DNA of 64,000 nucleotides. Origin: Anaerolineae bacterium. GTDB lineage: Bacteria > Chloroflexota > Anaerolineae > UBA1429. Made by a program: the position numbers and the translations under genes. The stretch lies in contig JAXGON010000006.1 in assembly GCA_040767425.1 (NCBI GenBank), positions 54,595 to 118,594 on the forward strand, in the 5' to 3' direction. Position 1 is the first letter of the stretch. Each line of letters starts with the position of its first letter. Of this stretch, positions 54,096 through 64,000 are shown in pieces. The notes under the pieces were generated by a model. The model searched no databases and was not told the origin of the DNA. It saw only the letters and a program-made list of their open reading frames with translations.

Positions 54096-55327
54096 CGCGT
54101 CGCGCCCGCACGTTCGCCGTGGACCACCGGCAGGCCCAGCAGATGCCGCCGTACCAGATCGAGGGCCGTGTGTACCAGCCAACCCTGGGCGGCGGGGCCA
54201 GAGCGCCACGCTGTGGGCGCGGCCGCGGTGGATCCTCCCTCCCATGCCAGAGCAAAGTGAACCTGACGTTGCTCCTCGGGTGAGTTCCCCAGGCCGTCGA
54301 TGGTTGCCAGGCCCAGACTGGCTCCATGGCGCTGGCGCGTCAGCTCGGCCAGTACGTCCGCTGACGGTGCCGAGCTCTCAGCGCCGAGCAGGGCCGCCAG
54401 CGCCGGCGCGGAGCGAACGCTGCAGCCCCCTGCCAAGCTCTCGGCATGGCTTTCCTCGGCCAGGAGCGCGTTCGCAATGCCGGCCTGGGTGGCGGTCTCC
54501 GCGACGGCCAACGTCAAACCCTCTTTCGCCAAGAGCTCTAGCACGATCCCGGCCAGTGTGTCGTGATCCACCCCAAAGATAAACTCGCCCAGGCGCGCGC
54601 GGATCTCTTTTTCTACCGGTGCGATGAGCTCGTCGGCGGCCTGGCGGGTGGATGCCTTGGTAGTGATCCGAATGTCGACCTGGCCCGGGTGGGCGGCGGT
54701 GCCCACGGTGGGATTGCTCATCTCCATCAGGTCTGGGATCACGGCTCCAAGGGTGCTCTCGCCGATGCCGCAGGTCCGCAGGGTGCGGCTAGCGATGACG
54801 GCCTGTAGGCCGTAGCGTTCTTGAAGGAGGGGCAGGACCGCGTGTTCCATCAGGTAGCGCATCTCGTGGGGCACCCCGGGCAAGGCGATCACCAGGCTGC
54901 CCTGGTGCTCAACGGCGAACGCGGGGGCGGTGCCCACCGGGTTGCGGATTACCTCGGCGCCGGACGGGATGGTGGCCTGCTTGCGGTTGCTGTCGGTCAT
55001 CACGCGACCTCGGCCAGCGAAAAAGGCGGCGATCTCCTCGAGCAAGCCTTCGTCAAGCACGATGGCCCGCCCTGTGGCGCGCGCGATGCCCTCACGCGTC
55101 ATGTCGTCCACCGTGGGGCCGAGGCCGCCTGTAGTGATGACGAGATCGGCATTGGCCAGGCCGTCGCGCACGGCGTTGCCGATGCGATCGAGGTTGTCTC
55201 CCACGGTGACGGTCCGATAGACGTCTAGGCCGATATAGGCCAGCTGCTGCGCGATCCAGGCCGAGTTGGTGTCGACAATCTCGCCAAGGAGGAGCTCGGT
55301 GCCGATGGTGATGATCTCTGCTTGCAT
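54092..55327 (-). CDS. cinA: CinA (MocF-like plus degenerate PncC domain)
   Basis: IGTELLLGEIVDTNS, GGLGPTVDDMT, NPVGTAP and LPGVP.E. Confidence 0.92.
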   Translation of the reverse strand: MQAEIITIGTELLLGEIVDTNSAWIAQQLAYIGLDVYRTVTVGDNLDRIGNAVRDGLANADLVITTGGLGPTVDDMTREGIARATGRAIVLDEGLLEEIAAFFAGRGRVMTDSNRKQATIPSGAEVIRNPVGTAPAFAVEHQGSLVIALPGVPHEMRYLMEHAVLPLLQERYGLQAVIASRTLRTCGIGESTLGAVIPDLMEMSNPTVGTAAHPGQVDIRITTKASTRQAADELIAPVEKEIRARLGEFIFGVDHDTLAGIVLELLAKEGLTLAVAETATQAGIANALLAEESHAESLAGGCSVRSAPALAALLGAESSAPSADVLAELTRQRHGASLGLATIDGLGNSPEEQRQVHFALAWEGGSTAAAPTAWRSGPAAQGWLVHTALDLVRRHLLGLPVVHGERAGATR

Positions 55328-55338
55328 GTTGCCTCGCT

Positions 55339-56442
55339 CTAGAGCTGCTCTTGGTGGCCGCGGGCGCGCAAGAGCTTGACTAGCTCGCTGACCTGCTGAG
55401 CGCGGTCGCGCGGCATGATCAGGAGCGCATCGGGGGTGTCGACGATAACGAGATCATGGATGCCGATGGTGGCCACCAGCTTGCCGTCGGCGTGTATCAG
55501 GTTACCGGCGCTGTCGATGGGCACAAGCCCCTTGCAGGCCATGACGGCGGTCGCGTCCCCGTCGTGGGCCAACATGCCATAGACGGCTGCCCAGCTGCCT
55601 ACGTCATTCCAGCCCATGTCGCAGGGCACCACGGCCACATCAGTGGCTTGTTCCATGATGCCCACGTCGATGGTGACGGGCACGATGCCGTTCCACGCCT
55701 CGGCGATGGCATCGGTATCCTCCGTGGGCGATGAGACGATCGCCTCTAGGGCCTGGTACGTCGCCGGCAGGTGCTTACCAAAGGCCCCCAGGATGGCGTC
55801 CAGCGTCCAGGCAAAATAGCCCGCGTTCCAGTAGTAGCGTCCCGCGGCGACGAATGCGCGGGCATCGTCAAGGGGGGGCTTTTCCACAAAACGCGCGACG
55901 GCATAGGCTGGTGGATCGGTGGGCGGGTCGATCTGCGCGCCTCGCTCGATATAGCCGAAACCGGTCTCGGGCTGGCTGGGGACGATCCCAACCGTGACCA
56001 GATGGCCCTGGCGTGCGGTGGCGATGGCCGCCTGTAGCCCGCGGCGAAAGGCATCGGCGTCGGCGACGACATGGTCGGCGTGAAGCGAGACCATCACATC
56101 GCTTCCAGAGTGGGCGTTGCGCAGGCGCATGGCCGCCAGCCCTAGGCACGGCGCCGTGCCGCGGGGGCTGGGCTCGACGAATAGGTTCCCGTCTGGCAGT
56201 TCGGGGAGATGGTCCCGGATCAGCGCGGCGTGGTCGGGTCCCGTCAGGATATAGATGCGTTCCCAGGGCGCCAATGGCAGCACACGCTCGATGGTGTTTC
56301 GCAACAGAGATCCATCGCCAAAGAGATCCAGGAGCTGCTTGGGCGAGCTGGTGCGGCTAAGGGGCCAGAGCCGGGTGCCGCTGCCACCGGCCAGAATGGT
56401 GATGTGAACATCCTCGCAGGTCTCGGGCGATCGCGACGGCAT
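55339..56442 (-). CDS. mannose-1-phosphate guanylyltransferase
   Basis: ILAGGSGTRLWPLSR..PKQ, EP..RGTAP, ADH, ETGFGYI, FVEKP, WNAG and WNDVGSW. Confidence 0.93.
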   Translation of the reverse strand: MPSRSPETCEDVHITILAGGSGTRLWPLSRTSSPKQLLDLFGDGSLLRNTIERVLPLAPWERIYILTGPDHAALIRDHLPELPDGNLFVEPSPRGTAPCLGLAAMRLRNAHSGSDVMVSLHADHVVADADAFRRGLQAAIATARQGHLVTVGIVPSQPETGFGYIERGAQIDPPTDPPAYAVARFVEKPPLDDARAFVAAGRYYWNAGYFAWTLDAILGAFGKHLPATYQALEAIVSSPTEDTDAIAEAWNGIVPVTIDVGIMEQATDVAVVPCDMGWNDVGSWAAVYGMLAHDGDATAVMACKGLVPIDSAGNLIHADGKLVATIGIHDLVIVDTPDALLIMPRDRAQQVSELVKLLRARGHQEQL

Positions 56443-56461
56443 GGTGGCCTCCTCCCCAGCC

Positions 56462-57547
56462 CTAGCGGGCCAGCACATAGCAGGTGTTGTCGACGCGACG
56501 CACCACGCCACGCAGCTCCATCATGGCCAGGGTGCTCGATACCGCGGCCGTGGGGAGGCCCGTTCGCCGAACCAGCTCGTCCCCGTGGCGAGGCTCGCGG
56601 CCCAGGTGGGCGAGACGGTCCTTTTCCGCAGGTGTGGCCGGAATGATCCGCCGGGTCTCTTGCTGCTGGGGCGCCATCGTCAGATGGAGCTCCTCCAGGA
56701 TGTCCTCAACGTCGGTGACCAGCTTGGCCTCGCCACGCTTGATGGCTGCGTTGGTGCCCTCGCTGGCCTTGCTGTGGACGCTCCCGGGCACGGCAAAGGT
56801 CTCTCGACCTTGTTCCAGGGCATAGCGCAGGGTGATCAGGGCGCCGCTGCGCAAGCCTGCCTCGACGACGATCGTTCCCAACGAGAGCCCGCTGATGATC
56901 CGGTTGCGGGGCGGAAAGTTGCGCGCCTCGGGCTGGGTGCCCAGCGAATAGTCGCTCACCAAGGCGCCATGCTGAACAAGGCGTTCGGCCATGTCGCGGT
57001 GGCGGGCTGGGTAGACGTGATCGAGTCCGCAGGCCAGCACCGCGACGGTGCGGCCGCCGGCATCGAGGGCCGCGCGATGGGCGATGCCATCAATGCCCAG
57101 TGCCAAGCCGCTGACTATGGTGACGCCACTCTGCGCCAGGCCGGTCGCGAGCTTGCGGGCCAGTTCCTTGCCATAAGTAGAGGCATGGCGAGTGCCCACC
57201 ATGGCGACGGCAAAAGAGTCGGCCTCGGTAAAGGAGCCGCGCACATACAACACTGGCGGAGCGTCGTCGATCTCTTTGAGGAGCTGGGGATAATCGTCGC
57301 TCTCCCATGTGAGGACGGTCACGCCTGCTTCCTGGAGGCGGGTGACCTCGGCGTCGAGATCAATGCGTTGGCGGTGATACAGCAGGCTCTCGACAGCGGG
57401 TCGTGGCAAGCCGATGGCGCGCAGGTTGGCGGGAGGGGCGTGCCAGGCTTGGTCCAGCGAGCCAAAGCCGTCGAGGAGCTGGCGCAGACGGGCGGGGCCG
57501 ATCTGGGGCACGCGGTTGAACCCGATCCAGTATCGCAGGTCGCTCAT
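56462..57547 (-). CDS. dprA: DNA-processing protein DprA
   Basis: VGTR, SGLALGIDGIAH, FPPRNRIISGLS, VEAGLRSG and C-terminal winged helix. Confidence 0.97.
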   Translation of the reverse strand: MSDLRYWIGFNRVPQIGPARLRQLLDGFGSLDQAWHAPPANLRAIGLPRPAVESLLYHRQRIDLDAEVTRLQEAGVTVLTWESDDYPQLLKEIDDAPPVLYVRGSFTEADSFAVAMVGTRHASTYGKELARKLATGLAQSGVTIVSGLALGIDGIAHRAALDAGGRTVAVLACGLDHVYPARHRDMAERLVQHGALVSDYSLGTQPEARNFPPRNRIISGLSLGTIVVEAGLRSGALITLRYALEQGRETFAVPGSVHSKASEGTNAAIKRGEAKLVTDVEDILEELHLTMAPQQQETRRIIPATPAEKDRLAHLGREPRHGDELVRRTGLPTAAVSSTLAMMELRGVVRRVDNTCYVLAR

Positions 57548-57571
57548 CGGCTGATCCGTGTATCCCGTTCG

Positions 57572-58144
57572 CTAGCGGAGGCCGTCTGGCACCCGCACCC
57601 GAAGAACTCCAGCGTCCATGTCGACGGCCAGCACCACGTCGTGGATGGCTGGCAGAAGCAGTTCGCCCTCGGCGGTGCGGATCACATACACATCGTTGGC
57701 GCCCGTGGAGATCACCTCGACAACGCGGCCGAGCGTCTCGCCCGACTCGACCTGCGCCAATAGCCCCACGATGTCGCAGATAAAGTACTCGTGCTCTGCC
57801 AGCAGAACGGCCTCATCACGCGTTACCCACAGCCACTGGCCGCGGAGCGCCTCGGCAGCGTCACGGTCGTTCACGCCCTCCAGCTGGAGGAGCGCCCATT
57901 GCTGGTGCAAGCGAGCTCGCTGCACGGCGTAGGGTGAATGCTCGGGCCCGACCAAGACGCGATCTAGATCTAGGAACCGCTCGGGTAGGTCGCTCTCGAT
58001 GCGCACACGGAGCTCGCCGCGCACGCCGCGCGGACCCACGATCTGCCCGATGACTAGGTGGGTTCGCTGCTGGCTCGTATGCAAAGGGGCGACGTCCTCA
58101 CTGCGGGGGCGTCGCCCTCGAGGGTCTTGGCTGGATCGAGGCAT
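57572..58144 (-). CDS. rimM: ribosome maturation factor RimM
   Basis: GQIVGPRGVRGE, EYFICDIVG, TGANDVY and LLPAI. Confidence 0.96.
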   Translation of the reverse strand: MPRSSQDPRGRRPRSEDVAPLHTSQQRTHLVIGQIVGPRGVRGELRVRIESDLPERFLDLDRVLVGPEHSPYAVQRARLHQQWALLQLEGVNDRDAAEALRGQWLWVTRDEAVLLAEHEYFICDIVGLLAQVESGETLGRVVEVISTGANDVYVIRTAEGELLLPAIHDVVLAVDMDAGVLRVRVPDGLR

Positions 58145-58405
58145 CTAGACGATTTCGAGGGTGGTGCGCGGAGCCTCGCGTGTGCAGGATGCCACGCGCA
58201 ACATGGACCGCATGGCGTTGGCCACACGACCACGCTTGCCGATCACCCAGCCCTTGTCCTCGGGGGCCACCGTGAGCTGATAGATGAGGGTGCGGCCGCT
58301 ACGTATTTCGGTTACGCTCACGGCCTCGGGATTGTCCACCAATGAGCGGGCCATGTACTCGACCAGGCCCTTCATGGATGTCTGCAGCTCATCCTGCGTT
58401 GACAT
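58145..58405 (-). CDS. khpA: KH-domain RNA-binding protein
   Basis: LVDNPEAV and GWVIGKRG; position between rpsP and rimM. Confidence 0.92.
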
Positions 58406-58688
58406 GCTCTTCCTCTGCGTTAATCTGCTCTGCCTCGCCCTGGAACTTGGCCATGATGCCCAGGTTACGCAGCATGCGCGCCACCGCTTCGGTGGGCTGG
58501 GCGCCTACGCCGAGCCAGTAGAGGGCTCGCTCTTGGTCGATTACAACCGTGGGCGGATCCGTCCGCGGGTTATAGTGACCGATGATCTCGATAAAGCGGC
58601 CGTCGCGCGGCGCTTCCGAGTTGGCCACTACCACGCGGTAGGTTGCCTGCTTTTTCGCTCCCCGTCTTGCCAATCGGATCTTGACCAT
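58389..58688 (-). CDS. rpsP: 30S ribosomal protein S16
   Basis: [24 protein letters not shown] and GAQPT. Confidence 0.98.
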
Positions 58689-58737
58689 GCTCTAAACTCA
58701 TCCCATCTAGTTGATTGCGCTTGCGAACCGATAATCG

Positions 58738-58766
58738 ATTATACACCAGAGTGTCGCCGATGGCTA
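58738..58766 (-). promoter_or_regulatory. rpsP operon promoter
   Basis: TAGCCA-N17-TATAAT. Confidence 0.65.
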
Positions 58767-60089
58767 ACCGAACATCGAGAGCAGCCCCTTCATGCCGCGT
58801 CCTTTTTGCAGGTGTTTCATCAAGCGCTGCATCTCGTCAAACTGGCGCAAGAGCTGGTTGACATCCTGCACCGTGGTGCCGCTTCCCCGCGCGATCCGAC
58901 GCTTGCGGCTGGCGTTGATGATCTTGGGATTGCGACGTTCCTGCGCGGTCATCGATCGCACAATGGCCTCGCTGCGGCGCATGCTGGCGTCCGTCTCTTC
59001 TGAGGGGAGTTGCTTGGCCAGGCGGTTCATGCCAGGCACCATGCCAAGCACTTCGCTGAGCGGCCCCATCTGCTTGAGGGTCTGGAGCTGCTCCAGGAAA
59101 TCCTGAAGTGTAAAGCTGCTGGCGCGCAACTTGGCTTCCATGGAGCGCGCCTGATCGGCCGAGACGGCCGTCTCGGCCCGCTCGATGAGCGAGAGCACAT
59201 CCCCCATCCCCAGGATGCGGGAGGCCAGGCGATCGGGATAGAACGGCTCCAGATCGGACGGGCGCTCACCGACGCCCAGGAACTTGATGGGAACGCCTGT
59301 GACCTCGCGGACGGAGAGCGCAGCGCCGCCGCGGGCATCACCGTCGATCTTGGTCATAGCCAAGCCCGTGACGTTGACGCGCTGGTGAAAGCTATCAGCT
59401 ACCGACACGGCCTCCTGGCCCGTCATGGCATCCACCACCAACAGCACTTCTTGTGGCTCGGTCTGGCGGCGAATCTCCTGCAGCTCGGCCATCATCGGCT
59501 CATCGATCTGCAGGCGGCCAGCCGTATCCAGCAGCACCACCGTAAAGCCTTCGCGTCGAGCGCGGCGTACCGCATTGGCGCAGATGGTCACGGGCGGCGT
59601 GCCCTCGGGTTCGGCGTGCACGGCCATGTCCAGTTGGCGGCCCAACGTCTGGAGCTGGTTGATGGCAGCGGGGCGGTAGATGTCGGCGGCCACCAGCAGC
59701 GGGTGTTCGCCCTTGTTGCGCAGGTGCAGGGCCAGCTTGGCGGCCATGGTCGTCTTGCCAGAACCCTGGAGGCCCACCAGCATGATGACCGAGGGGGGCT
59801 TGTCGGCCAGGTTGAGCTCCTTGGCCTCGCCCAGGAGGGTGATCAACTCCTGATGGACGATCTTGATGACGCTCTGGGCGGGGGTGAGGGAGCGGGCTAC
59901 GTCGGCCCCCACGGCGCGCTCGGCGATGCGCTGGGTAAAGTTCTTGACGACGCGATAGTTGACGTCCGCCTCGAGCAGTGCCAAGCGGACCTCGCGCAGC
60001 GCCTGCGAGACGTCATCCTCGGAGAGGCGTCCCTTGCGTGCCAACTGATCAAAGGTCTGTTGCAGTTTTTCGCCCAGCGATTCGAACAT
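58764..60089 (-). CDS. ffh: signal recognition particle protein
   Basis: GLQGSGKTT, DTAGR, TKIDGDARGG and M domain SMT..ER, SRKRRIARGSG. Confidence 0.98.
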   Translation of the reverse strand: MFESLGEKLQQTFDQLARKGRLSEDDVSQALREVRLALLEADVNYRVVKNFTQRIAERAVGADVARSLTPAQSVIKIVHQELITLLGEAKELNLADKPPSVIMLVGLQGSGKTTMAAKLALHLRNKGEHPLLVAADIYRPAAINQLQTLGRQLDMAVHAEPEGTPPVTICANAVRRARREGFTVVLLDTAGRLQIDEPMMAELQEIRRQTEPQEVLLVVDAMTGQEAVSVADSFHQRVNVTGLAMTKIDGDARGGAALSVREVTGVPIKFLGVGERPSDLEPFYPDRLASRILGMGDVLSLIERAETAVSADQARSMEAKLRASSFTLQDFLEQLQTLKQMGPLSEVLGMVPGMNRLAKQLPSEETDASMRRSEAIVRSMTAQERRNPKIINASRKRRIARGSGTTVQDVNQLLRQFDEMQRLMKHLQKGRGMKGLLSMFG

Positions 60090-60133
60090 TCACCCTCGTC
60101 CTACGGTGCATGCCAACGTATCTTCAGGATGTG

Positions 60134-60162
60134 ATTCTAGGGGCGAAGGGGGCTTCCGTCAA
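60134..60162 (-). promoter_or_regulatory. ffh promoter
   Basis: TTGACG-N17-TAGAAT. Confidence 0.8.
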
Positions 60163-60164
60163 AG

Positions 60165-61481
60165 CTAGGCGTCGGCCTGGGCCTTGGAGGGGAGCAGGTC
60201 CTCGGGAGGGATATCCTTGTCGACGCGGCCCCCGATGCTGGCGTGGGGCTGGGCGTCCTGCATCACCACCGAGAGCTCGGGCGCGCTGGTGTGCACAAAG
60301 AGCTCGTGGGAGGCCTGTAGATCGCCGCCACCGTTGCGGTGGATGACCGCGGCCAGGCGCCAAGAGACGCGCCCGCCAGGCAGCTGCATGGTGGGACGGA
60401 ACCGCTCGGGGATGGTGACGGTGAGCTCGTGGTTGGCTACGCGGTCTGGCAAGAAGGTGGTCTTGCCCAGCAGCGCGATCTCGTCCTCCAGCCAGACGTA
60501 GGTGGTGCCCTTGCCGCCAGACTCGCGCTTGCCGCGGAACGTGCCCTCATCCAGGTTCCACTCGGCGATATAGACCGTGTCGCCCGTGGTGCCCTGGGGC
60601 GTGTGCTCGATGCGCAGCAGGACCGCCCGCACCTCGTCGGCCTCCAGACGTTCCAGGGGGCGGATGCGCAGGTTGGCATGAATGGTCTGCCCCTCGGCCA
60701 CCACCACCTCGGGAAGCTGCAGGCTCAGTTGAACGGTGGCGTTGGCATTGATGGCCACGAACTCGCGGCGCTGGCGCTCCATGGCGACAGGATGTCCCCG
60801 CACCGTGATCTCGGCTGTGGCGGTGACGTCCTCGCGTCCAGCGATCTCCAGCCGACCGTGCAGGGTCCACATGACGGCGCAGATGTACCCACGATGGCAG
60901 GCGGGAGCGTCCTCGGGGATGCGAAAGCTAAAAGGGATGCTCAGCGTCTTTCCACGGCGCAGCACGCTAGGAGGCACGATCTCATCGGCTTGGCTCAGAT
61001 AGACATGGGTATCGCGGACGAGGCTCAGTTGGGGTGGGTCTGTGCGATGAAGCATCTCATGGGCAAACATGCCTCGGCAAAGAAGCGTTACCTGGCCCGA
61101 GAGGATCTCGGCGCGCGAAGGTGCCGTAATGCGAAGCAATCCTGTGATCCGTTCGCCAGGCGAGTAGGTGGCCTCGGGGTGATCGAGCTCAAACGTCATG
61201 GTGGGCGGCGGTCCCGCAGGTAGGGCCAAGGTTCCGATGACAGCTCCGCAAGCTCCCCCCACCAATACACCCAGGACCAAGCCGACGGGAGCTCCAATCA
61301 GGGCGCCCAGGAAGCCGCGCCCCACGGCGCCGAGCACGATGCCGAGCACTAACCCTGCGGCTCCGCCTTCGAGCCCGCCCCAGATCAGCCCATGGCGGGT
61401 AATCGGCTCCAGCCGCTCGAGGCGCGACCAGGCCTCAATGCGGGCGACGAGCTGGCGAATCTTTTCCCCTAGTGCGGCCAT
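60165..61481 (-). CDS. glycine-zipper membrane protein with two arrestin/Spo0M-like beta-sandwich domains
   Basis: GxxxG-repeat hydrophobic N-terminus; YSPGERITG, PFSFRIPEDAP, W.L.GRLEI.G.ED; a second repeat GQTIHANL, TIPERFRPT, SWRLAA.I.R. Confidence 0.7.
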   Translation of the reverse strand: MAALGEKIRQLVARIEAWSRLERLEPITRHGLIWGGLEGGAAGLVLGIVLGAVGRGFLGALIGAPVGLVLGVLVGGACGAVIGTLALPAGPPPTMTFELDHPEATYSPGERITGLLRITAPSRAEILSGQVTLLCRGMFAHEMLHRTDPPQLSLVRDTHVYLSQADEIVPPSVLRRGKTLSIPFSFRIPEDAPACHRGYICAVMWTLHGRLEIAGREDVTATAEITVRGHPVAMERQRREFVAINANATVQLSLQLPEVVVAEGQTIHANLRIRPLERLEADEVRAVLLRIEHTPQGTTGDTVYIAEWNLDEGTFRGKRESGGKGTTYVWLEDEIALLGKTTFLPDRVANHELTVTIPERFRPTMQLPGGRVSWRLAAVIHRNGGGDLQASHELFVHTSAPELSVVMQDAQPHASIGGRVDKDIPPEDLLPSKAQADA

Positions 61482-61530
61482 CGGCTGCCTCTACCTGAAC
61501 TCGTGGTTTCGACTCTGAACCGCTGGACCG

Positions 61531-61539
61531 ATTATAGCA
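61531..61539 (-). promoter_or_regulatory. extended -10 for the arrestin-like gene
   Basis: TGCTATAAT ~50 nt upstream of the start. Confidence 0.55.
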
Positions 61540-61588
61540 CGCCGTCAACGGCACGGAAAGGCACCCAGCCGATTCCCTGGGCGGGCAT

Positions 61589-61617
61589 TTGCCACAGCCG
61601 TGTGGCGGTGCTATACT
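61589..61617 (+). promoter_or_regulatory. tRNA promoter
   Basis: TTGCCA-N17-TATACT with TG extension, 12 nt before the tRNA. Confidence 0.8.
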
Positions 61618-61629
61618 GCGCGCCGTGTT

Positions 61630-61703
61630 CGGGGCGTAGCGCAGCCAGGTAGCGCACTTGAATGGGGTTCAAGTGGTCGGACGTTCAAATCGTCTCGCCC
61701 CGA
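61630..61703 (+). tRNA. tRNA-Pro(GGG); CCA not encoded
   Basis: acceptor stem CGGGGCG/CGCCCCG; D stem GCGC; anticodon stem CTTGA/TCAAG with loop ATGGGGT; T loop TTCAAAT. Confidence 0.97.
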
Positions 61704-61707
61704 CACC

Positions 61708-61737
61708 GAACGGCCAGCCAATGGAGGCTGGCCGTTC
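61708..61737. terminator. 12-bp hairpin after the tRNA (no U tract)
   Basis: GAACGGCCAGCC-AATGGA-GGCTGGCCGTTC. Confidence 0.55.
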
Positions 61738-61776
61738 ATCGTGTGCTGCCCCCGCTGCTCGCCCGAATCTGCCATC

Positions 61777-61962
61777 CTAGGCCTCATGATCCCACCGCGA
61801 GTCGTCCTCGAGATGGTCCCACTGGATCTTGGCGTGCCCCTCAAGCTGGGCGATGGTGCCGTCACGCTGGAGGGTTGCCTCGACCAACGCTAGCTGACCT
61901 CCGTCGTCGGTGCCGTTGTGCGGGTTGCGGCCCAGGCGAATGGCGATGCCTTTCTCATACAC
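61777..61962 (-). CDS. possible 61-aa small protein (start uncertain)
   Basis: coding-like GC3 from GTG at 61962 and a CTAG stop; no clear RBS. Confidence 0.3.
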
Positions 61963-62054
61963 ACGAGTGAGCCGCAAGGTATCGCGTAGGAACCAAACTC
62001 GGTTGGGAGAAGGGCGAGGCGGCCATGGGTTGTGCTTTTGCGCCAAATGAGCAT

Positions 62055-62083
62055 TGGTCAGAGGGCCGGGATCGTGGTATAAT
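62055..62083 (+). promoter_or_regulatory. promoter ~215 nt upstream of the carD-like gene
   Basis: TGGTCA-N17-TATAAT with TG extension. Confidence 0.65.
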
Positions 62084-62304
62084 AAGGGGTACCATCGGGC
62101 GTGCATGCTACCTCGACTCGGTAAGGCGAGAGGATGAGCGGGTCAGGCGTTCCTGTTGGGAAACCTAGTGGGCCGGGTATGTTGGGCGGTTAGCGGTATT
62201 CTAGGCGGAATGCCACGCGGCGCCCGTTTTTCTTTTGGGCGAGCGCGTCGGCATGGAGTGACGCGGGTTCGGGATTGCCAGACTAGGCAAAGGTAGGGGC
62301 TGCG

Positions 62305-62814
62305 ATGTTTGCCGAAGGAAGCAAGGTTGTGCATCCGTGCTATGGCGCTGGAACGGTGGTGCGTGTCCAGAAAAAGAGCATCGGAGATGATGCGCGGCGC
62401 TACTATGTGATCGAGGCTGTCTGCAAATCGATGCAGGTGATGGTGCCAGTGAATCGCGCCGATGACCTGGGGCTGCGAGAGGTGGGCCGCAGCCAGTATC
62501 TCCTCAAGGTGCTGCAGTCGTGCGCCGTTCCGCCCACCGATGGCGAGATCGGGTCGGATCTACGGGCTCGTCAGCAAGAGATGCGTGACCAGCTCAAGTC
62601 GGGGTCGTTCACGTCGGTGGCGGACGTTGTGCGCAAGCTCTATTTCCTCTCTGAAAAGCGCCCGCTTGGCACGGTGGATCGTCAGCTCTTTGACCGAGGC
62701 AAGGACCTCTTGGCTAGCGAGCTAGCTCTGGCCACCAACCAGGCGCTGGATGATGCCATGCAGATGGTGGAGGAGACGCTCGGCAGTATGGTCGCCGCCC
62801 TCGAACAGGAGTGA
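62305..62814 (+). CDS. CarD/CdnL family transcriptional regulator
   Basis: F..G.KVVHP.YGAG.V, VMVPV...D.LGLR, LKSG...VA.VVR.L and ELALA. Confidence 0.9.
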   Translation: MFAEGSKVVHPCYGAGTVVRVQKKSIGDDARRYYVIEAVCKSMQVMVPVNRADDLGLREVGRSQYLLKVLQSCAVPPTDGEIGSDLRARQQEMRDQLKSGSFTSVADVVRKLYFLSEKRPLGTVDRQLFDRGKDLLASELALATNQALDDAMQMVEETLGSMVAALEQE

Positions 62815-62842
62815 CGGCGCGCGAGCGGTGCTCGTACATGCG

Positions 62843-62871
62843 AACCGGCGGCCATTGGCCGCCGGTTTTTT
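62843..62871 (+). terminator. intrinsic terminator
   Basis: AACCGGCGGCC-ATT-GGCCGCCGGTT-TTTT. Confidence 0.85.
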
Positions 62872-62885
62872 GCGTCACGTTCACC

Positions 62886-64000
62886 CTAGGGGCGCAGAGA
62901 GGGGGGCGCCTCGATGGGGTCCTCCAGGAGGCGCTCGGCCAGGGCGCGATAGCTCTGCGAGATCTCGGCCTCGGGATCGGCCAGCAGGATCAGCTCCTGG
63001 CGGCTGTGGGTGTGATAGAGCAGGCCCGGGGCCGATGGTATCACCTCGAGGATCCCGAGGTTGATCTCGCTGGCGATCTGCGTGGCCGGCTTTTGCAAAG
63101 CGCCGGCATAGCGCTGCACCAGCACGAACCCAGGAACTTGGGTTCCGTAACGGCCGCCCTCGAGCCAGGCCAACAGCGTGCCCAGGTGCCACTCGGACAA
63201 GGGGTCATGCTCGCAGACGGGCAGGATGACGCTGGCTTGTGACAGCACCTCGGCTGTGTGTGACATGTTGGCGATGCCGAGATCGATGATGATGAGGCCG
63301 TACCTGTGCTGAAGCATGGTCAGCGCCTCGGTCAGGATGCCAGGGCGCAGCGGCTTGGGCGCGATGGCGTTAGAGAGCCCGGGGAGATAGTCAAAGCCGG
63401 CATGGGTCTCCAAGATGCAGCCCATGAGGCCTGCCATGGTCAGGCGCGTGCCCTCGGGGGCTAGCATCTCTTGTAGGCTCTGCCCCGTGTGGGTGTCCAG
63501 GAGCCAGGGGGCAGAGGCGCCATGTCCCTGGAGCTCGACGTACAGGATCTTGCGTTCGCCATCGACCAACGCGGCGGCCACGTTCAGAGCGGTGGTGGTG
63601 GTGCCCACGCCGCCCTTGGCGCCGACAAAGGCCAACACCCGGCTGGTGGGGCTAGGCGGCCGTTTGGCGCGGGCCAGCAGCGCCTTGAGGCGAGCCATCA
63701 CCTCTTTGGGGTCGGCCGGCTTGGCCAAATAGTCGTCGGCTCCAGACTCAAAGCCGTTGAGCTTGTCGGTGACCTGGGTGCGCGCGCTCAGCATCAGGAT
63801 CGGGACGTCGCGGATGGTCGGTATGCTGCGGATCTGGCGGCAGGTCTCAAAGCCGTCCATGTCCGGGAGCATGACGTCCAGAATCACAATGTCCACCGTC
63901 TCGGACATGAGCAGCTGGATGCCGTCGGCGCCGTTATAGGCCGACATGGTGCGGAATCCTCCGCGCTCAAGGACATAGCCGAGCATCTCCACAAAGACCG
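62886..64000 (-). CDS. receiver domain plus MinD/CpaE-like ATPase (5'-truncated by the window edge)
   Basis: ILDVMLP...DGFE, GADDYLAKP and deviant P-loop GAKGGVGTTT; the frame stays open to the window end. Confidence 0.88.
   Translation of the reverse strand, partial: VFVEMLGYVLERGGFRTMSAYNGADGIQLLMSETVDIVILDVMLPDMDGFETCRQIRSIPTIRDVPILMLSARTQVTDKLNGFESGADDYLAKPADPKEVMARLKALLARAKRPPSPTSRVLAFVGAKGGVGTTTTALNVAAALVDGERKILYVELQGHGASAPWLLDTHTGQSLQEMLAPEGTRLTMAGLMGCILETHAGFDYLPGLSNAIAPKPLRPGILTEALTMLQHRYGLIIIDLGIANMSHTAEVLSQASVILPVCEHDPLSEWHLGTLLAWLEGGRYGTQVPGFVLVQRYAGALQKPATQIASEINLGILEVIPSAPGLLYHTHSRQELILLADPEAEISQSYRALAERLLEDPIEAPPSLRP

Follow-up and report, generated by a model that had tools for sequence, protein, structure and literature searches.

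The window analysed in this work, a 64,000-nucleotide stretch of an Anaerolineae genome (GenBank assembly GCA_040767425.1, contig JAXGON010000006.1), holds a gene whose product joins, in one bacterial polypeptide, a membrane anchor to what is predicted to be a complete two-lobed arrangement of the arrestin/Vps26 type. The gene is a single unbroken open reading frame (ORF) of 438 codons at 60165..61481 on the minus strand, stop codon included in the coordinates. Its product, here called P0001, is 438 amino acids (aa) long and is a member of the arrestin N-like clan (Pfam CL0135), with one domain above the curated cut-off and the two-lobed arrangement present in the predicted model, and it fails the specific tests of every named family of that clan. 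The fold is a known one, whilst the architecture and the family are undescribed in the literature searched: full-text searches returned neither a bacterial single-chain two-lobed arrestin nor a fusion of a glycine zipper to an arrestin. Automatic annotation pipelines already flag an Arrestin_N domain in the family.

Results

Predicted fold and the two beta-sandwich lobes

The topology predicted by AlphaFold2 was the same with an alignment of 14 sequences as with one of 52, the predicted local distance difference test (pLDDT) being 73 in the first case and 89 in the second, where the predicted template modelling score (pTM) was 0.75. Helices at residues 2-16, 19-22, 26-55 and 57-86 are followed in the model by all-beta domains at 94-227 and 241-397 and by a tail of low confidence. 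When either model was compared with the PDB by Foldseek, the top 50 matches were all two-lobed chains of the arrestin clan, including ARRD-6, Vps26A/B/C, TXNIP, visual and beta-arrestins and Rgp1, and generic Ig-like folds were absent from these 50. The best match was ARRD-6 (7usy_J, E 1.9e-17), and the alignments ran through both lobes over 332-345 columns, with template modelling scores (TM-scores) of up to 0.73 on Vps26B (332 columns). An earlier reading, made from the sequence only, had assigned the arrestin fold by eye, and the predicted model bears it out, as both sandwiches superpose on Vps26 and on alpha- and beta-arrestins. Since all of the top 50 belong to the arrestin clan and align with both lobes, the modelled fold is neither a generic Ig-like one nor a single sandwich.

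The first lobe (residues 94-230; 60792..61202, minus strand) matches Pfam Arrestin_N over residues 96-227 with 30 bits (cut-off 24.9, E 6e-7) and with 33.2 bits when taken in isolation, and the same model is matched by all 14 first-round homologues, the best of them at 2e-21. The second lobe (residues 241-399; 60285..60761, minus strand) is recognised by the Foldseek alignments over both lobes and by its homology to the first. Residues 92-232 and 238-400 align by hhalign over 133 columns with a probability of 96.9% and an E-value of 1.6e-10, and the alignment pairs PGERITGLL with EGQTIHANL, FSFRIPEDAP with LTVTIPERFRP and WTLHGRLEI with WRLAAVIHR, which are the very motifs from which the earlier reading had proposed two beta-rich repeats. 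Arrestin_C is matched at E of 1 or below by 11 of the 14 first-round homologues (best 9e-5), and by P0001 itself with 15.7 bits against a cut-off of 27.7 and over residues 248-292 only. In terms of Pfam, P0001 passes Arrestin_N, and Arrestin_C and Spo0M stay below their cut-offs. Typing of the lobes as N-type or C-type by means of these models failed, given that the lobes of soluble relatives (see below) match both models and isolated C lobes prefer Arrestin_N, that of one relative with 23.9 bits.

A profile of the family, built from 52 relatives and searched against all PDB chain sequences, found the N domain of TXNIP (3.7e-11), ARRDC3 (1.7e-9) and Caenorhabditis elegans ARRD-6 (7.9e-9), in this order, followed by VPS26C (1e-6), Spo0M (5cl2, 1.5e-5) and beta-arrestin-1 (2.7e-5). 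The TXNIP and ARRDC3 matches concern the first lobe, and the alignments with ARRD-6, VPS26C and beta-arrestin cross the junction between the lobes. A search of the same chains with the single sequence gave insignificant matches to the glycine zipper only.

Two further parts of the module deserve mention. The second lobe carries a beta-hairpin (residues 301-338; 60468..60581, minus strand) with the motif G-T-T-Y-V-W-L-E, which is invariant across anchored members, whereas in soluble relatives the same residues are gapped or different; this makes the hairpin a candidate partner-binding element. The C-terminal tail (residues 400-438; 60168..60284, minus strand) consists of a short helix and a poorly conserved stretch, along which pLDDT drops from 65 to 42-48 and the alignment is variable.

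The membrane anchor

P0001 starts with charged helices (residues 1-30; 61392..61481, minus strand), the N-terminus reading MAALGEKIRQLVARIEAWSRLERLE, with six K/R and four D/E over the 30 residues, corresponding to the two short helices at 2-16 and 19-22 of the model, and with neither a lipobox nor a signal peptide. These are followed by a transmembrane helical hairpin with two glycine zippers (residues 31-88; 61218..61391, minus strand), as indicated by hydropathy, glycine periodicity and the predicted structure alike. The means of the Kyte-Doolittle index over 19 residues are 1.4-2.2 in this region, and its glycines form two ladders with an exact i+4 spacing and in register with each other, one of five (G35, G39, G43, G47 and G51) and the other of seven (G59, G63, G67, G71, G75, G79 and G83), separated by a short turn that reads N-R-G in most relatives. 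G51, G59, G63, G67, G71, G75 and G79 are invariant in the alignment, and the helices at 26-55 and 57-86 are modelled as a hairpin with pLDDT of 93-97. The zipper of about 55 aa with repeated GxxxG, noticed in the sequence-only reading, is therefore real, with each ladder exceeding the three glycines at i+4 in a hydrophobic helix that define a transmembrane glycine zipper. Pfam Gly-zipper models score far below their cut-offs for P0001, and several members of the family give sub-threshold matches to these Pfam families.

We infer that both ends of the hairpin are on the cytoplasmic side (N-in/C-in), residues 1-30 included, from the positive-inside rule, from the minimal turn and from the cytosolic location of all characterised arrestin-clan proteins (Alvarez 2008, PMC2515105). 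The N-terminal tail carries 3-7 K/R in members with a complete N-terminus, and in several members the second transmembrane helix is followed by a positive flank. Translocation of the N-terminal tail of P0001 seems unlikely because of its six positive and four negative residues. Between the hairpin and the first lobe lies a linker of only about eight residues, LPAGPPPT.

Comparison with known families

Among solved structures, the best relatives of P0001 in sequence are the alpha-arrestins TXNIP, ARRDC3 and ARRD-6, with which it shares two tandem sandwiches and an N lobe without helix I; the helix I that visual and beta-arrestins have, besides a phosphate sensor in the polar core and a C-tail with a regulatory role, is without a counterpart in the model, where no helix occurs within residues 94-400. 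According to its entry title, ARRD-6 was solved in complex with the membrane channel TMC-1, which provides a precedent for the association of an alpha-arrestin with a membrane protein. P0001 differs from alpha-arrestins in having its own transmembrane hairpin, as opposed to their peripheral association, in an identity of only 10-14%, in a C lobe below the Arrestin_C cut-off and in the absence of a ubiquitin-ligase system to recruit. Its 438 residues contain no PPxY motif for recruitment of Nedd4-type ligases, the PP sites being PPPT, PPQL, PPSV and PPED. Charged residues are conserved at E283, R285, R290, E292 and D387.

The best global superposition is that on Vps26A/B/C (TM-score 0.68-0.73, about 335 columns, both lobes), and VPS26C is the one of them also matched by the sequence profile of the family. 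Pfam Vps26 gives no match to P0001 at E of 10 or below, and the best member of the family reaches 24.2 bits against a cut-off of 27. Vps26 also differs in working with the partners Vps35 and Vps29 in retromer or retriever, neither of which partners is known in bacteria or encoded in the neighbourhood of the gene, and in that P0001 is membrane-integral. NCBI calls two members of the family 'vacuolar protein sorting-associated family 26 protein', a name that overstates the evidence, as do the 'Spo0M' labels on relatives.

Spo0M (PF07070; 5cl2) is prokaryotic and resembles P0001 in its arrestin-N-like first domain and in the opening motif PGE...G.v.l. As the earlier reading had held in contrasting its single domain with tandem sandwiches, 5cl2 aligns to the first lobe only (P0001 residues 98-229 with 17-134), Spo0M having neither a second arrestin lobe, in whose place a different C-terminal domain stands, nor a membrane anchor. 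The Pfam Spo0M model gives the family 19.1-22 bits against a cut-off of 23, and 19.1 to P0001 itself. SlyB, with its helical hairpin of repeated GxxxG and adjoining non-helical domain, is matched by the profile at E 0.008, which is not significant. P0001, unlike SlyB, is without a lipobox or signal peptide and probably has a cytoplasmic topology, so that the resemblance is one of analogy and not of membership. Finally, Asgard archaea have proteins with arrestin N- and C-domains, but as separate proteins with one gene between them (10.1101/2021.04.02.438162), whilst P0001 has both lobes in one bacterial polypeptide in addition to its anchor.

The family and its soluble relatives

When 1.84 billion representatives were searched exhaustively by profile, 1014 proteins reached an E-value of 1e-3 or below and 32 reached 1e-30 or below. 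The anchored family amounts to about 32 clusters at 50% identity, with Anaerolineae as the only source found, and the glycine-zipper hairpin and the invariant G-T-T-Y-V-W-L-E occur together in its full-length members of the top group. Orthologues of P0001, with identities from 28 to 95%, were located in 31 genome loci, all of them in Anaerolineae-type metagenome-assembled genomes (MAGs); the scan used two family-specific peptide patterns, and may for this reason miss divergent members. The closest public relatives come from MAGs labelled Chloroflexota, Anaerolineae or Anaerolineales. Purifying selection on the gene is strong, the ratio of nonsynonymous to synonymous substitution rates (dN/dS) being 0.06-0.14 against four orthologues.

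Next among the matches come many soluble two-lobed proteins with a length of about 295 aa. Pfam recognises both Arrestin_N and Arrestin_C in them, and their named sources are Thermoflexia, Chloroflexi and Rubrobacteraceae, often under the label Spo0M or hypothetical. They are collinear with P0001 over both lobes (family profile E from 1e-17 to 1e-39) and have in common with it the fold-defining residues G109, F184, P189, G198, W205, G264, E283, R285, R290, E292, W374 and D387. Unlike P0001, they have no glycine-zipper hairpin and no GTTYVWLE hairpin and do not lie beside ffh, the neighbour described below. The anchored family is thus an offshoot of this larger soluble set. Three relatives (P0085, P0093 and P0132) have N-terminal transmembrane segments unrelated to glycine zippers, from which it follows that membrane attachment of the module arose more than once. 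Three of the soluble relatives (P0039, P0058 and P0110) end in a zinc ribbon (Zn_Ribbon_1, DZR, DUF7577, DUF7575).

Linkage to ffh and transcription

The gene lies just upstream of ffh, as the earlier reading had noted together with the membrane tether, and both traits are conserved. In the window, ffh, which encodes the SRP54-type GTPase (58764..60089, minus strand; Pfam SRP54, SRP_SPB and SRP54_N), follows on the same strand after 75 nucleotides (nt) and is itself followed by rpsP, a KhpA-type KH gene, rimM and dprA, all confirmed by Pfam. Of the 26 loci whose downstream sequence is long enough, 23 have this ffh-rpsP-khpA-rimM-dprA order directly after the arrestin-like gene, and the adjacency persists where identity of the arrestin-like protein falls to 28-38%. 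In one of the three exceptions (L008) ffh is displaced by about 5.6 kb behind unrelated inserted genes (L008:7225-12700); in another (L020) recombinase-fragment, helicase and methylase genes of restriction-modification type take its place, with no ffh within 6 kb (L020:7371-13058); in both cases the intergenic region seems to have received an insertion. The third (L007) has unrelated genes downstream. As background we used 80 metagenome ffh loci of Chloroflexota type, with Ffh 55-98% identical. The arrestin-like gene occurs in three of them, the only three where Ffh is at least 66% identical, and in about 55 others the gene upstream of ffh varies by lineage. Given this variation in loci without the arrestin-like gene, the adjacency is more stable than the background.

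Even so, the two genes do not look like one operon, a default that was rejected in view of a conserved promoter between them. In the window this is a sigma70-type promoter-like site, TTGACG-N17-TAGAAT (60134..60162, minus strand), 2 nt past the stop codon of the arrestin-like gene, and 22 of the 24 intergenic regions have a promoter that agrees with the consensus at 9 or more of its 12 positions, in most cases 35-49 nt ahead of the start codon of ffh. In five loci (L023-L025, L028 and L031) it is preceded by a GC-rich hairpin and TTGTTT. The intergenic gaps measure 70-320 nt, with no overlap of start and stop codons or translational coupling, and in the window the stretch between the genes holds no predicted terminator. 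The arrestin-like gene has a predicted extended -10 of its own, TGCTATAAT (61531..61539, minus strand), about 50 nt before its ATG and read from the sequence, and TGnTATAAT is also found upstream of the orthologues in L001-L005, L011, L018/19 and L029/30.

Four metatranscriptome-like runs contained a few short contigs 100% identical to the inside of the gene, plus one from a relative with 93% identity. They hint at expression of the gene, weakly, because such libraries can contain DNA, and are no evidence of co-transcription. One RNA-labelled contig (X25) is 100% identical over 61343-61610, with one end within the gene and the other about 70 nt above the predicted -10, which would mean either that transcription starts further upstream than predicted or that the library contained DNA.

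Other features of the locus

On the upstream side the gene faces a divergent tRNA-Pro(GGG) (61630..61704, plus strand), which is common to 13 related loci, including two where the adjacency to ffh is broken, and a CarD-like gene, also divergent. Upstream genes differ between subclades and have a divergent orientation, and neither a small ATPase nor any other upstream partner is conserved. Further on, at 62886-63992 (minus strand), a response-regulator receiver is fused to a P-loop ATPase of ParA/MinD type (Pfam Response_reg with AAA_31 and ParA), an arrangement kept in the closest relatives only (L001 and L004). The ffh operon occupies 56462-60089 on the minus strand, with dprA after rimM, and its order is kept in related Anaerolineae loci; in many bacteria it is trmD and rplS that follow rimM. 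The only Rfam match within 55000-64000 is the tRNA, and the window has no paralogue of the arrestin-like gene. G+C is about 65% across the locus, without a compositional break, and the source DNA is near-identical to metagenome sequences from wastewater, anaerobic digesters and oil fields. P0001 gave no NCBIfam family and no PADLOC defence family, so that a defence-system reading was dropped, and no enzyme signature was found in it by Pfam, NCBIfam or PADLOC.

Discussion

The interpretation we favour, to which we give an even chance, is that P0001 is a cytoplasm-facing, membrane-tethered protein-binding scaffold anchored by its glycine zippers. The two-helix zipper hairpin would fix the two-lobed module in the cytoplasmic membrane, and, because the linker is so short, the elongated module would be held flat along the inner face of the membrane. 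There it could act without enzymatic activity of its own, gripping the cytoplasmic parts of at least one integral membrane protein, as characterised arrestin-clan proteins do, whilst the zippers might allow self-association or lateral docking onto the transmembrane helices of the client. The GTTYVWLE hairpin of the C lobe would be the likeliest contact site specific to the family. The gene would be transcribed from its own promoter, with read-through into ffh possible where no terminator is predicted, and a tie to the biogenesis of membrane proteins by the signal recognition particle (SRP) would be possible but not required.

Several observations weigh against this interpretation. The ligand of a beta-sandwich scaffold could just as well be a lipid, a nucleic acid or another copy of the scaffold. 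Taken in isolation, the C lobes of four members stay under the Pfam cut-offs, their best scores being 15.2 bits for Arrestin_C and 23.9 for Arrestin_N. The flank after the second transmembrane helix of P0001 is acidic (no K/R and four D/E), and the topology as a whole is inferred. Beyond the ffh operon, the neighbours of the arrestin-like gene are not conserved. And among the 31 genome loci every carrier is an uncultured MAG, with no named isolate.

The acidic flank would also fit sandwiches placed outside the cell, on a hairpin with both ends out or on a single spanning helix. This would agree with the Gly-zipper Pfam families being mostly envelope lipoproteins and with beta-sandwiches being common outside cells. 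However, P0001 has no signal peptide, both helices are long enough to span the bilayer, the hairpin is confidently modelled and the characterised members of the clan are all cytosolic (PMC2515105), which makes an extracytoplasmic envelope protein very unlikely. The zippers might instead be the main business of the protein, assembling it into rings or palisades in the manner of SlyB or of proteolipid c-rings, with the arrestin lobes as a cytoplasmic collar, in which case it would serve to organise a membrane domain and not as an adaptor for clients. The two in-register ladders with their invariant glycines speak for such an organiser, and the only PDB matches outside the arrestins are the SlyB zipper and subunit c'' of the V-ATPase (E 0.2), both weak, to which the sub-threshold Gly-zipper matches of several members can be added. 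None of these matches is significant, though, the zipper faces may do no more than hold together the two helices of a single hairpin, which is how the confident monomer model shows them, and the lipobox and signal peptide of SlyB are missing; we consider this organiser distinctly unlikely.

An adaptor coupled to SRP, acting with Ffh/FtsY and with SecYEG, YidC or FtsH, perhaps to mark newly made membrane proteins or to keep hold of them, has the genomic neighbourhood on its side: ffh directly downstream on the same strand in most loci and down to 28% identity, an adjacency unusually stable when compared to loci of similar Ffh divergence without the arrestin-like gene, exceptions (L008 and L020) that show inserted or replacing genes, and no predicted terminator in the window. 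The own promoter of ffh, the GC-rich hairpin before it in several loci and the uncoupled gaps nevertheless argue against it. Furthermore, the synteny of tRNA-Pro(GGG) in 13 loci means that the adjacency is in part plain inherited gene order. With three of 80 ffh loci carrying the gene, SRP evidently works without the arrestin-like protein in related bacteria, and a role in SRP-linked sorting is a matter of conjecture. The sequence-only reading had considered a part in undescribed sorting or remodelling of membrane proteins. The adjacency to ffh is conserved, but so is the separate promoter of ffh, and a conserved partner gene is missing; we regard an SRP-coupled adaptor as unlikely. Least probable of all seems a divergent member of the Spo0M branch. 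Bacillus Spo0M has been reported in the control of development or division and in FtsH-linked turnover, and the sub-threshold Pfam scores, the profile match to 5cl2 and the labels 'Spo0M' or 'sporulation protein' on several relatives could suggest a similar regulator here. Yet Spo0M aligns with the first sandwich only, alpha-arrestins score far better, the second lobe and the membrane hairpin are both foreign to Spo0M, and Anaerolineae are not known to form spores.

The arrestin clan was defined in 2008 with Spo0M as its prokaryotic branch (Alvarez 2008, PMC2515105), a definition repeated in reviews, and in the literature searched the prokaryotic side of the clan is still described as Spo0M (PMC2515105, PMC9105457), a match to one arrestin-like lobe only, whilst Asgard proteins with arrestin N- and C-domains are counted among the 'eukaryotic signature proteins' (10.1101/2021.04.02.438162). 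To this the present work adds a bacterium with both lobes in one chain, which also carries a membrane hairpin and whose sequence lies nearer to alpha-arrestins than to Spo0M. At the level of sequence, the collinear alignments over the lobe junction with three eukaryotic subfamilies favour a shared two-lobed ancestor, and the unusually strong similarity between the N and C lobes of the same protein, together with the preference of the C lobe for Arrestin_N, leaves an independent duplication possible. It is tempting to go one step further and to suppose that two-lobed arrestin adaptors are not an invention of eukaryotes or derived from Asgard archaea but already existed in bacteria, and that the Anaerolineae form is a membrane-integral cargo adaptor working with the neighbouring route of SRP, insertion or quality control; taken jointly, these suppositions are highly doubtful.

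In conclusion, should they prove true, Anaerolineae would have a prokaryotic counterpart of the selection of membrane proteins by arrestins and Vps26. The origin of the two-lobed arrestin architecture becomes testable with bacterial sequences, and the family advises caution against taking arrestin domains as markers of eukaryote-like trafficking. With its anchor and arrestin module in one polypeptide, P0001 may offer a compact model for the role of the arrestin fold where there are no G-protein-coupled receptor kinases, ubiquitin ligases or endosomes.

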